Shown piece by piece: positions 1 to 2,122 of a stretch of 6,942 nucleotides of DNA; within the stretch, counting starts at the first letter, position 1; the number at the start of each line of letters is the position of its first letter. This stretch comes from an uncultured Neisseria sp. (GTDB lineage: Bacteria; Pseudomonadota; Gammaproteobacteria; Burkholderiales; Neisseriaceae). The stretch covers positions 1 through 6,942 of the forward strand of contig CAKARM010000113.1 in NCBI GenBank assembly GCA_916720585.1. Reading direction: 5' to 3'. The translations under genes were made by a program, and so were the position numbers. The notes beneath the pieces were generated by a model. It had not been told where the DNA came from, did not search any database, and saw only the letters and a program-made list of their open reading frames with translations.

Positions 1-465
1 GACTTGGTCATACAATGCGCTGTCCAGATTGTTGGTGCCGCGGCGGATGGCTTTACCGTCGTAAAGGAATTTGGGCGCGCCGTCCACGGAAATGCTGTCA
101 ATCGCCTGACTGCGCGAAATAAACTCGCTGTGTCCGGAAACGTTGTTGCCCATTTTGCTGTGGAACACGCCCGGTGTTTGTTTCAACACGTCCTGCAAGG
201 TATCCAAACCTTGGTCGTCCATTTGTTTTTCGGTAACAACAGACAAAGACTGCGGCGTTTCGCGCTGGGTCAGGCGGATGCCTGTCGCAGCGGAGGAAGC
301 CGGAATGGTGTAGTTTGAGGTTGTCTGTTTGCCGACGCCCCGTACTTGGACAGTAGGCAAATCAACCTGCCCAACCCCATCCCCTGCGCCCAAGGAATAG
401 GCAGACAAAAGTGCCGTAGCAACAGCAACCGGCAAACGTGCCGGACGAAATTTAGATAATGGCAT
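1..465 (-). CDS. TonB-dependent siderophore receptor (FhuE/FpvA-like), signal peptide plus N-terminal plug domain; 3' part runs off the window start
   Basis: Not in the supplied ORF track. Hand translation of the minus strand from ATG 465-463 is open through base 1 (155 codons, no stop): MPLSKFRPARLPVAVATALLSAYSLGAGDGVGQVDLPTVQVRGVGKQTTSNYTIPASSAATGIRLTQRETPQSLSVVTEKQMDDQGLDTLQDVLKQTPGVFHSK...DSALYDQV. It has a signal-peptide-like N-terminus, a TonB-box-like DLPTVQV, and a plug signature (TQRETPQSLSVVTEKQMDDQGLDTLQDVL) close to the E. coli FhuE plug as I remember it. A strong SD (AGGAG) lies 5 nt upstream (470-474 region). Confidence 0.85.
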   Translation of the reverse strand, partial: MPLSKFRPARLPVAVATALLSAYSLGAGDGVGQVDLPTVQVRGVGKQTTSNYTIPASSAATGIRLTQRETPQSLSVVTEKQMDDQGLDTLQDVLKQTPGVFHSKMGNNVSGHSEFISRSQAIDSISVDGAPKFLYDGKAIRRGTNNLDSALYDQV

Positions 466-571: not shown

Positions 572-720
572 AAATTTCTGTAATAGGATGAAATAAAACG
601 GTCGGAGTATAGGGAACTGGCGGGCATGAATCAAATAATTTACACAGTCCCCGACACATCATTTTCATCTGCATGACCATCTTTCATTCTCAATCAAACA
701 AATCCGACAGCCGCAGCCAC

Positions 721-819: not shown

Positions 820-1767
820 CTAATTTCGGTATCGTGAACGGTCGTAATCTTTACCTGTTTTATACAGTTGGTAGGCAATAACGGCAAGTTTGCGCATGAT
901 CGCGACTATTATCAGCTTCGGGGGCTTCCCCCTCGCTTTGAGGCGGGCTATAAAGGCTGGAAATGCGTTCATACGGTAGGCGACAAGTGCGGGCATATAC
1001 AGGGCTTTACGGGCGTTCTTTTTCCCCTGTTTTGATATTCGGGGCTTTCCTTTGACGCTTGTTCCCGAATCTTTGATTTTTGGATCTAAACCGAGGTATG
1101 CGGCAAATTGATTTTGATTGGCGAAGTCGTAGCGTGTGAGTTTTGCGAGCAGGGCGGAAGCGGCGGATTCGCCTATACCGTCTATGGTTTTCAGGCGGTT
1201 CTTTTTTTCGTTGTATATTGGATTTTGGCGGTAGAAGTCTTTGAGTTCGTTTTGTACGGTTGCTATAAGCCTGTTCAGATGGTCTATGGTGGTCTGTATG
1301 TGACGGCGGATAGTATCGGGGGCGGTTTGGTGTTTGGTCTGCTCTGCGGCTCTCTGCTGCTTAAGGCGGGCTATATAGTCTGTGATGGCTTGGAGGTATT
1401 CTTGCTCTTCTGTCGGCGGCTGCCATGCTTGGGGCTGCATTCGTCGGCAGTATTCGGCTATCAGCCTCGCGTCCTGCCTGTCGGTCTTGGTTCGTATCTG
1501 TTCGGCTTCTCTGAAGCCTTTTATCTTGCTTGGATTGACTATGCTTACGATGTGTTTCTGTCTTAAGTGGGCGGCTATGGCTTCGTGGTAGATTCCTGTC
1601 GCTTCACAACAGCAATGCACCGATTCAGCGGTGTGCCCCTGTATCCATTCGTCCAAACGTCTGAATCCGTCCTCTGTGTTGTCAAACCTCCGTTCATAAA
1701 AAATGCTGTCTGAAATCAGACAGCAGTCTATGGTTTTCTTTGATACGTCTATCCCTAAGTAGTACAT
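820..1767 (-). CDS. pivNM: IS110/Piv-family DEDD recombinase (transposase), Neisseria pivNM/irg-like
   Basis: 315 aa. The N-terminal RuvC-like DEDD domain motifs are YLGIDVSKK, CCEATGIYHE and IVNPSKIKGF...KTDRQDA. The C-terminal Tnp domain has IDGIGESAASALLA and YLGLDPKIKDSGTSVKGKPRISKQGKKNARKALYMPALVA with the conserved SG serine. A modest SD (TAAGG) lies 8 nt upstream. Its position at the end of a filamentous prophage matches what I recall for Nf/MDA prophages. Confidence 0.93.
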   Translation of the reverse strand: MYYLGIDVSKKTIDCCLISDSIFYERRFDNTEDGFRRLDEWIQGHTAESVHCCCEATGIYHEAIAAHLRQKHIVSIVNPSKIKGFREAEQIRTKTDRQDARLIAEYCRRMQPQAWQPPTEEQEYLQAITDYIARLKQQRAAEQTKHQTAPDTIRRHIQTTIDHLNRLIATVQNELKDFYRQNPIYNEKKNRLKTIDGIGESAASALLAKLTRYDFANQNQFAAYLGLDPKIKDSGTSVKGKPRISKQGKKNARKALYMPALVAYRMNAFPAFIARLKARGKPPKLIIVAIMRKLAVIAYQLYKTGKDYDRSRYRN

Positions 1768-1951
1768 TGTTTTGCCTTATTTATTCAGGCTCGCAGCCTT
1801 GTATAGTGTTCAAACTGGTTATGTACGGAAGCCCGCGCTTCTATCTTTTTTCCAAGCTTTGGCTTTGGTCGTGCTTCGGAAGTCGCGGGCTGCGGTTCGG
1901 GTCATGAATCCAAACCCCTGAAAGGGTTGGTTACCCGTTCAGGGCTTTGGA
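1762..1951 (-). ncRNA. Candidate bridge (seek) RNA in the recombinase leader: 5' stem-loop plus two internal-loop modules
   Basis: Hand fold of the minus-sense strand. Hairpin 1951->1909 has 17 bp. Module 1 has closing helix 1891-1884/1837-1830 (8 bp), loop strands 1883->1863 and 1851->1838, and distal hairpin 1862->1852. Module 2 has closing helix 1826-1821/1767-1762 (GUACAU/AUGUAC, includes the start codon), loop strands 1820->1800 and 1786->1768, and distal hairpin 1799->1787. The module 1 3' strand contains the 11-nt match to 721-731. No credible ORF is present. The function is an inference. Confidence 0.3.
1841..1851. repeat. Right arm of the exact 11-nt inverted repeat (CTATCTTTTTT), partner at 721-731
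   Basis: See 721-731. This arm lies 74-84 nt upstream of the recombinase ATG, inside the large internal loop of leader module 1. Confidence 0.9.
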
Positions 1952-1983
1952 CTCTTTTTGCCTTCGGCGACGTTCGCCACGTG

Positions 1984-2020
1984 GCAGGGGGTGGGGTAAA
2001 AAACACACCCCACCCCTTGC
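1984..2020. repeat. GC-rich 14-position hairpin with an A-rich 9-nt loop
   Basis: 1984-1997 GCAGGGGGTGGGGT pairs with 2007-2020 ACCCCACCCCTTGC (13 Watson-Crick pairs plus one G.T on the plus strand, which is A.C on the minus strand). The loop is AAAAAACAC. It is preceded by the perfect 10-bp palindrome GCCACGTGGC (1976-1985) and a small hairpin GGCGA-CGT-TCGCC (1966-1978). Confidence 0.8.
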
Positions 2021-2045
2021 GGGCAGCGTCTTTGGGTGGGTTAGC

Positions 2046-2122
2046 GTCAAGGGGTATCCAAAAAGATTTATAAAGACGATAAAGCCGTCTTTACAAATCT
2101 TTCTGGACGCCCTCCCCTTGAC
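2046..2122. repeat. 77-nt composite imperfect hairpin immediately after the last morphogenesis ORF; candidate inovirus packaging signal
   Basis: The inner helix 2057-2078 / 2086-2107 has 22 positions: 20 Watson-Crick pairs and two A.C mismatches, with loop ATAAAGC. The outer helix is GTCAAGGGG 2046-2054 / CCCCTTGAC 2114-2122 (9 bp), across a 2/6-nt internal loop. No U-tract follows on the phage-sense strand. The structure is seen directly; the function is inferred by analogy to the Ff packaging hairpin. Confidence 0.5.
2067..2096 (-). promoter_or_regulatory. Sigma70-like promoter candidate reading toward the leader and recombinase
   Basis: Minus-sense TTGTAA (2096->2091), an 18-nt spacer, then TATAAA (2072->2067); alternatively TTATAA with a 17-nt spacer. 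It is embedded in the arms of the 2057-2107 palindrome. This is a sequence match only. Confidence 0.25.

Follow-up and report, generated by a model that had tools for sequence, protein, structure and literature searches.

A predicted IS621-type bridge RNA encoded beside the recombinase gene of a filamentous Neisseria prophage

The stretch of interest—6,942 nucleotides of contig CAKARM010000113.1 from an uncultured Neisseria sp., hereafter the window—carries a Neisseria Nf-type filamentous prophage, to which every long open reading frame (ORF) belongs. Its genes, all of them on the minus strand, encode part of a replication protein, small proteins of coat-like type, an adsorption protein resembling TspB, Zot (PF05707) and, in last place, an IS110-family recombinase (820–1767). 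The leader of this last gene (1769–1951, minus strand) very probably encodes a bridge RNA of the IS110/IS621 type, which would program the neighbouring recombinase for integration of the entire filamentous phage in its circular replicative form. The model for such a system is the bridge RNA and recombinase of Escherichia coli insertion sequence (IS) IS621 (Durrant et al. 2024, PMC11208160; structures 8wt6–8wt9). A first-pass annotation, made from the letters of the window, had proposed a bridge-RNA-like architecture for the leader; position and strand, a two-module covarying fold, homology to the IS621 RNA, the polarity of the guides, and covariation between guides and junctions all fit this proposal, and are set out below.

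The recombinase can be aligned from end to end with the transposase of IS621 (PDB 8wt6, residues 1–313, E = 1e-61) and with ISCro4 (E = 4e-60), and residues D7, E55, D96, D99 and S234 are unchanged across 23 homologues. As in IS621, the RNA immediately precedes, in the same orientation, the gene for a homologous full-length DEDD/Ser recombinase (the match to our RNA model, at 1762–1899 of the minus strand, adjoins the recombinase ATG at 1767), and its parts come in the same order: 5' stem-loop, target loop, donor loop. In both systems the 5' loop strands equal the top strands of the left DNA halves, and the 3' loop strands are complementary to the core and the right halves. We refer to these four strands as the left and right target guides (LTG, RTG) and the left and right donor guides (LDG, RDG), and to the DNA halves that they match as the left and right target (LT, RT) and the left and right donor (LD, RD). 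The leader was said to hold no credible ORF, and we agree.

Comparisons drew on (i) two near-identical prophages from Neisseria genomes (L001, L002; L numbers are our locus identifiers), (ii) three circular inovirus records from saliva (L009–L011), and (iii) 80 IMG/VR loci with recombinase identities from 96% to 40%, which came from an alignment-based search of viral contigs; a single-protein search of genome contigs gave eight loci only. An E. coli IS621 copy (L092) served as the reference, and the 177-nt IS621 bridge RNA matched 1199 E. coli records at 100% identity.

All junction sequences are given in the phage sense orientation, corresponding to the window's minus strand. The attR junction was placed where homology with five other prophage copies stops (Table 1); the six integrated copies share ...GGAATACACTAT-CT-TTTT(T/C) and diverge thereafter, and circular relatives continue with TATATATT. 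On the chromosomal side, positions 1–465 (minus strand) encode the start of a TonB-type receptor gene. The circular genomes L009/L010 supply attP, ...AATACACTAT-CT-TATATATTGC..., and left junctions (attL) read TTTCAGACGAC-CT-TATATATTTCGC in L001/L002 and TTTCAGACGGC-CT-TATATATTGC in L013/L015. From these attR, attL and attP sequences it follows that the donor is LD-CT-RD and the target LT-CT-RT, with only CT(T) in common. The CT core is thus framed as ..TAT-CT-TAT.. in attP and ..GAC-CT-TTT.. in attB, and is found in both attL and attR. A prophage end at the dRS3-like sequence GGTGGAAT (~745) was considered and rejected, given that the alignment of the six copies points to 726–727.

Each of the four predicted guides has a counterpart at these junctions. 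The LTG, ACGACC, fits the left target of the closest relatives (attL TTTCAGACGAC-CT), and the empty site described below agrees. The 3' strand of the target loop, AAAAA-AG-AUAG, is complementary at 11/11 nucleotides to the attR top strand of the window, CTAT-CT-TTTTT (721–731), and is laid out as in IS621: right target guide, core, handshake nucleotides. That one loop strand matches junction DNA had been recognized before; the match stands, with the correction that the strand reads across the attR product. The accompanying statement that the window holds no donor-guide match does not, since ACACUAU (1809→1803) is identical to the phage right end ACACTAT (734→728). The second donor strand, AAUAAAUAAGG (AAUAAAUA-AG-G), is complementary at 10/11 nucleotides to the attL top strand C-CT-TATATATT of L001/L002. 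The handshake dinucleotide is a known concept for these RNAs (PMC13626964); here, AG-AU(AG) pairs with LD ..(CT)AT, and AAG-G pairs with the final C of every left target.

Table 1. Coordinates and sequences of the recombinase gene, the predicted RNA with its guides, and the attachment sites in the window
Feature	Position	Strand	Detail
IS110-family DEDD/Ser recombinase, 315 aa	820–1767	minus	Pfam PF01548 and PF02371
attR junction	721–737	minus	LD AATACACTAT 737–728; core CT 727–726; RT TTTTT 725–721; chromosome below 721
attP sequence			GGAATACACTATCTTATATATTTCGC
attB sequence			TTTCAGACGACCTTTTTTGCGG
5' stem-loop of predicted bridge RNA	1909–1951	minus	17 bp in three segments, 5-nt loop; minimum free energy fold
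Second hairpin GGUUUGG/CCGAACC	1894–1916	minus	Read from leader alignment
Predicted target-binding module	1831–1890	minus	Closing helix 1890–1884/1837–1831; inner helix 1882–1879/1841–1838; distal hairpin 1868–1852
Predicted left target guide ACGACC	1867–1872	minus	Equals left-target top strand plus first core base (..CAGACGAC-C)
Predicted right target guide AAAAA	1841–1851	minus	Guide 1851–1847; core complement AG 1846–1845; handshake AU(AG) 1844–1841
Outer-helix 5' arm GUACAU	1821–1826	minus	Partner AUGUAC 1767–1762, start codon included
Predicted donor-binding module	1769–1815	minus	Closing helix 1815–1811/1774–1769; distal hairpin 1799–1787; internal loop
Predicted left donor guide ACACUAU	1803–1809	minus	Equals phage right end (LD ACACTAT, 734–728)
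Predicted right donor guide AAUAAAUA	1775–1785	minus	With core complement AG and handshake G; contains recombinase Shine-Dalgarno AAGG
Inverted repeat TGCTGTCTGA/TCAGACAGCA, then T6	1698–1725	minus	Resembles DNA uptake sequence; inside recombinase ORF; terminator scan

The donor guides also define what is moved. The RD adjoins the replication gene, ~6 kb upstream, and the circular phage records join LD-CT-RD, in line with the earlier suggestion that the donor is the whole phage in circular form. Across relatives, the LDG 7-mer recurs once downstream of the recombinase and is followed there by CT, in seven LD classes. One could suppose instead that recombinase and RNA are an ordinary IS110-family insertion sequence that landed in a prophage and moves alone, an idea to which we give almost no credence. 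It would sit well with L005/L006, which resemble small stand-alone IS copies with the same RNA, and with the related oral inovirus L093 (Inovirus D_HF1_11, OR148966.1), which is without the recombinase and RNA module and has three reverse-strand genes in its place, so that the integration module is optional in this phage group. However, the LDG matches the last bases of the prophage and the RDG matches sequence beside the replication gene ~6 kb away, the circular genomes join exactly LD-CT-RD, and gene order is kept in relatives from 96% down to 38% recombinase identity. Nor does an RD-like site lie just upstream of the RNA: the window contains a single near-match to RD, namely the complement of the guide itself, which leaves the module without its own left end and again makes the whole phage the donor. 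We accordingly rejected the class of minimal IS110 insertion sequences (~1.2–1.6 kb, RNA near the left terminus, recombinase as sole cargo), the donor unit here being a whole phage of 7–8 kb.

The target side could be read directly from a site without a phage. An exact-pattern scan of metagenomes for the window flank gave no match; anchoring on the neighbouring TonB-type receptor fragment, on the other hand, recovered phage-free orthologous loci from metagenomes (L096, L098 and others). The empty site of the window insertion reads ...AAAGGTCGTCTGAAACTTTTCAGACGAC-CT-TTTTT-GCGGCTGTCGGATTTG..., also written ...GGTCGTCTGAAACTTTTCAGACGAC-CT-TTTTT-GCGGCTGTCGG and TTCAGACGAC-CT-TTTTT. The site, exactly the one that the guides predict, belongs to a terminator formed by two inverted copies of AG-mucDUS—a dialect of the DNA uptake sequence (DUS)—and corresponds to its 3' arm; the CT core is the reverse complement of the AG with which AG-type uptake sequences start. 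The 21-kb L001 locus (~13 kb of it chromosomal) contains five exact copies of the 11-nt target pattern ACGRCCTTTTT.

Small duplications were seen beside some junctions. The window (702–720) carries one additional GTGGCT, ahead of GCGGCT, that the empty site TTTTT-GCGGCTGTCGG lacks. In L013 (75–100) and L030 (2502–2533), the phage left end is tandemly duplicated at the left junction (two copies of CTTATATATTGCA or of CTTATATATTGCGTCC), as would result from two rounds of recombination at that end.

If the loop strands are guides, they should change together with the DNA beside the prophages, a check that the first-pass annotation had put forward; they do. The RTG consists of the five lineage-variable nucleotides preceding an invariant AG, and it is the reverse complement of the flank that follows LD-CT. 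RTG/flank pairs include AGCAA/TTGCT, CAUCA/TGATG, AAGAA/TTCTT, UGAAA/TTTCA, AACAA/TTGTT, CGCGC/GCGCG, GAAAU/ATTTC, AAAGA/TCTTT, UGACG/CGTCA and GGAAA/TTTCC. Over 30 distinct pairs, 140 of 150 positions match the chromosomal flank (81 expected; 0/20000 permutations as good); counted by distinct 5-mer class, 73 of 75 positions match over 15 classes, and the match falls off sharply after position 5–6. In one closely related clade, this 5-mer is the most variable block of the leader. For the LTG, 74 of 90 positions match the left target (53 expected; 0/20000 permutations), a count that includes some alignment register errors.

The LTG tracks the uptake-sequence dialect counted in the flanking DNA. 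ACGACC accompanies AG-mucDUS in two clades independently, that of the window and that of L063 (44% recombinase identity); the other pairs are ACGGCC with AG-DUS, GUAGCC with AG-eikDUS, and GCAGC with AG-simDUS. Hosts of the AT-DUS dialect offer no CT core, because the reverse complement of that sequence ends in AT. In these hosts, guides CCCGCC and CGCGCAG specify ATTCCCGC-CT-GCGCGGGAAT (L018/L019), which is the published Nf1 dRS3 subtype, and other phages of AT-DUS hosts use AAAAC-CT-CGTCA.

A covariance model, R1, was built from phage leaders alone (its E-values are rough, owing to a shortened calibration). It matches once per phage locus, each time directly upstream of the recombinase, and it also matches the E. 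coli IS621 bridge RNA (L092, 1899–2051) with 30.6 bits and E = 5.6e-4 in 852 kb, or 7e-6 in a small search. In the R1 alignment, all four guides and the helices of IS621 fall in register with the phage columns: (i) LTG, phage ACGGCC/ACGACC and IS621 AUCGGGCC, (ii) RTG plus handshake, phage AAAAAAG-AU and IS621 UGCGUAG-AU, (iii) LDG, phage ACACUAUCU and IS621 ACAGUAUCA, and (iv) RDG, phage AAUAAAUAAGG and IS621 UAUUUGCAAGG. One model thus matches both systems, and the target-loop AGAU (core complement plus handshake) is conserved along with the CT core. An Rfam scan of the window gave no match in the minus strand of the leader and weak chance matches only (mir-4782, and ohsC on the other strand). 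Rfam 15 likewise misses the validated IS621 RNA; since even this RNA goes unmatched, Rfam has no bridge RNA model, and its negative result for the window is uninformative. The IS1111 subgroup, with its seekRNA, shares the recombinase superfamily and the principle of RNA guidance, but places the RNA downstream of the recombinase, in a long right end, and has long subterminal inverted repeats. We rejected this group for the phage element: R1 matches upstream of the gene only, and the 80–220 bp downstream hold the LD only.

The leader folds well. Its minimum free energy (1762–1951, minus strand) is −64.9 kcal/mol, whereas shuffled sequences average −41.9 (z = −5.8; 0/200 shuffles equally stable), and the corresponding fold reproduces the 5' hairpin and the target-binding module as originally described. 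All coordinates and sequences proposed for this interval proved accurate, among them the hairpin 1951→1909 and, within the target-binding module, a 5' strand at 1883→1863, a distal hairpin at 1862→1852 and a 3' strand at 1851→1838. The closing helix of this module spans 1891/1890–1884 with 1837–1831/1830, and an additional 4-bp inner helix, CUUC/GAAG (1882–1879/1841–1838), limits the internal loop to ~10 × 10 nt. In the donor-binding module the conserved closing helix is GUUU(G)/(C)AAAC (1815–1811/1774–1769), immediately beside the loop strands, and covariance-model alignment places the module on the IS621 donor-binding loop. The 5' stem-loop occupies the same position as that of IS621.

These helices are supported by compensatory change. 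In the target-binding module, all 11 pairs of the closing and inner helices show it (89.5% of cells paired), as do 4/4 closing-helix and 3/3 distal pairs of the donor-binding module (98.8% of cells paired); the upper stem of the 5' stem-loop is retained with compensatory changes in 29 leaders. RNAalifold, applied to 29 leaders, recovers the 5' hairpin, the target-module helices with their distal hairpin, and the donor-module distal hairpin, with 17 of 21 consensus pairs compensatory. A 23-pair structure was then written out and scored on 28 diverged leaders, with shuffles and partners slid by 1–3 columns as controls: 86.4% of cells pair (66.6% when shuffled, 34–49% when slid), 21 of the 23 pairs have changed on both sides, and the covariation score is 0.58 against 0.23 (0/500 shuffles as high). 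The stem covariation across homologous leaders that had been suggested as a check is therefore present.

Could the structures be DNA-level phage elements—a packaging signal, a replication origin, or recombinase arm sites that mimic att—rather than RNA? Intergenic regions of inoviruses normally house such signals, and the neighbouring block of long hairpins at 1960–2108 is more conserved than the flanking genes and recurs in a recombinase-less inovirus. That block, however, is upstream of 1769–1951 and outside it. Within 1769–1951, the helices vary compensatorily and specificity resides in the loop strands, a pattern that marks a guide RNA rather than a protein site, and the element always stands directly 5' of the recombinase gene on the same strand, as in IS621. 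We see scarcely any room for a DNA-level explanation.

The other alternative gives the leader an RNA role of a different kind: it would be only the 5' untranslated region (UTR) of the recombinase mRNA, controlling translation, with the protein alone picking the site and the att resemblances incidental. We hold this to be very improbable. Its best arguments are that the Shine-Dalgarno AAGG lies within the 3' strand of the donor loop, that the AUG of the window clade is enclosed in a 6-bp helix, and that a consensus scan detected no separate promoter. The helix in question, GUACAU/AUGUAC, had been put forward as the closing helix of the donor-binding module. Its arms (1826–1821/1767–1762) are correctly placed, and so is the distal hairpin at 1799→1787, but it is not a general feature: at least 5 bp form in just 19 of 40 distinct lineages (window clade included), with a single supporting compensatory change (GCAUU/AAUGC in L016). 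We rejected it as a conserved part of the RNA; where present, it could occlude the start codon. Besides a helix missing from half of the lineages, the 5' UTR explanation leaves four things unaccounted for: loop segments, four in number, that match target and donor with IS621 polarity; a 5-mer that tracks the flank in 15 classes; an LTG that tracks the dialect; and the model match to IS621. A regulatory role of the leader could exist alongside guidance.

Several observations do weigh against a bridge RNA in the leader. Firstly, guides and DNA do not agree everywhere. In the window clade, the LDG is followed by AC where the core would require CU (relatives have a perfect ACACUAUCU, and in IS621, too, the LDG fails to match at the second core base). 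A single position of the RDG is mismatched there, and the fit of the LTG is limited to six nucleotides, without the second core base. Among the relatives, flanks misfit their own guides at 1–4 positions in L013, L027, L030–33/38 and L086; the likely cause is insertion off target, or else an exchange of segments between prophages through homologous recombination or transformation. L027, for instance, occupies the same site as L025 and has a leader from another lineage. Secondly, the RDG overlaps the ribosome-binding site, so part of its conservation could be translational, and the A/T-rich guides (AAAAA, AUAAAUA) are of low complexity when taken alone. Thirdly, a simple consensus scan along the minus strand of the leader turned up nothing resembling a sigma-70 promoter.

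Taking a bridge RNA in the leader as the preferred reading, integration would proceed in steps modelled on the IS621 mechanism (PMC11208160; PMC13626964). The RNA would be transcribed and a recombinase tetramer would, by homology to IS621, hold both of its loops, with the guides pairing the phage replicative form (attP) with the uptake-sequence terminator (attB). Ser234 would cleave at the CT core, again by that homology, and exchange of top strands followed by bottom strands would yield attL and attR, as in IS621. The handshake nucleotides would stabilise the exchanged top strands, AU pairing with the phage end. Excision would use the same RNA across attL and attR.

Beyond the shared features given above, the donors of the two systems are near-alike (IS621 ACAGTAT-CT-TGTAT, phage ACACTAT-CT-TATAT), and in both the target is a repeated palindromic element. 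They differ in several respects: the donor is a replicating virus of 7–8 kb as opposed to a 1.3-kb IS; the phage LTG is shorter, ~5 nt plus C; the ribosome-binding site of the phage gene is embedded in the RDG; and the phage target is an uptake-sequence terminator or dRS3, that of IS621 an E. coli repetitive extragenic palindromic (REP) sequence. Moreover, the phage RNA lies ~6 kb from the left end, unlike that of IS621, and a junction-spanning promoter therefore cannot drive it. ISPpu10 and other REP-targeting IS110 elements offer a second parallel (review PMC13604230; Tobes and Pareja 2006, PMC1525189): here too the target is at a repeated extragenic hairpin, the left target of the phage being the 3' arm of the uptake-sequence hairpin, though the element is a phage. 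For the REP-targeting elements, a 5' hairpin of the target DNA is described as acting together with RNA-DNA complementarity (PMC13604230).

Inoviruses of the CTXphi type depend on the host XerCD recombinases, which act at a single dif site on a folded single-stranded attP, and encode no recombinase. The Neisseria phage resembles CTXphi in being filamentous and integrating site-specifically, and differs in having its own recombinase and many repeat targets. Closer to it are the Nf1–Nf4/MDA prophages of N. meningitidis and N. gonorrhoeae (Bille 2005, PMC2212043; Kawai 2005 via PMC7058167), which share the gene order with an IS110-family transposase last, multiple insertion sites at a CT-motif repeat, and a circular form. 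The recombinase of the window phage is ~59% identical, and its target is an AG-mucDUS terminator, not dRS3. As early as 2005 it was proposed that the Nf phages integrate at a CT-containing repeat through an IS110-family transposase of their own (PMC2212043; PMC7058167); the published work credits the transposase with site choice and leaves RNA unmentioned. The first-pass annotation, which was not aware of such a description for this phage group, was in this respect anticipated; what appears new is the guidance by RNA alone. For IS110 and IS1111 elements themselves, bridge RNAs are already well established. In literature searched with subscription journals outside its scope, we found no report tying a bridge RNA or seekRNA to a filamentous phage, inovirus, prophage or Neisseria phage, and none of uptake sequences as an attachment site. 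As judged from sequence comparison, the new element would thus be that a virus relies on a bridge-RNA module, retargeted in nature, for its integration.

Taken across the family, the data suggest that Neisseriaceae filamentous phages probably integrate by bridge-RNA recombination with naturally reprogrammed guides, in which (i) the LTG follows the DUS dialect (AG-DUS, AG-mucDUS, AG-eikDUS, AG-simDUS), (ii) phages of AT-DUS hosts, including the disease-associated meningococcal Nf1 type, have switched to dRS3 or another repeat, and (iii) the hypervariable 5-nt RTG splits sites among variants. Because the LTG follows the host dialect, the phage would attach at the host's self-recognition tag, of which there are thousands of copies; if so, splitting of these sites by the RTG could permit polylysogeny. 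Phage integration would thereby be linked to the DNA uptake sequence, which serves natural transformation as a species tag, with consequences for host range and for prophage spread by transformation. It would also supply a mechanism for a question open since 2005—how the Nf/MDA phages, one of them linked to invasive meningococcal disease, choose their repeat targets—and would take bridge-RNA recombination beyond minimal insertion sequences, to a virus that replicates and has 7–8 kb of cargo. The more than 15 naturally reprogrammed target guides with known sites form a specificity data set for the engineering of bridge recombinases.

Some further features of the window and its relatives deserve description. 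The hairpin block at 1960–2108 (minus strand) consists of a perfect 49-nt hairpin (2058–2106), a GC hairpin (1988–2016) and a small hairpin (1966–1978). It is 75–90% identical in phages whose recombinases are just 38–40% identical (L003, L004 and, twice, L011), is found in part in the recombinase-less L093, and is a candidate packaging signal or origin. Within the leader, the second hairpin (1894–1916) and the 5' stem-loop (1909–1951) exclude each other, because the 5' arm of the former overlaps the base of the latter. Both pairings are conserved, with covarying arms in other lineages (for the second hairpin, GGUUCGG/CCGAACC, CUUGG/CCAAG, GAUUCGG/CCGAAUC and GGUGGGAAU/AUUCACACC), and they may constitute a conformational switch.

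The inverted repeat at 1698–1725, a perfect 9 bp encoded by the conserved codons CCLISDSIF, is conserved in several lineages, where its 3' arm is an exact reverse-complement DUS (TTCAGACGGCAT in L016/L018, TTCAGACGGCCT plus T8 in L035). Speculatively, it could be an intrinsic terminator that sets the 3' end of the RNA or attenuates the recombinase, or it could act as a phage-borne uptake signal. Finally, at L092 (1786–1935), one IS621 copy appears to be inserted in DNA encoding the left target guide of another; guide and target having the same sequence, this insertion amounts to self-targeting.

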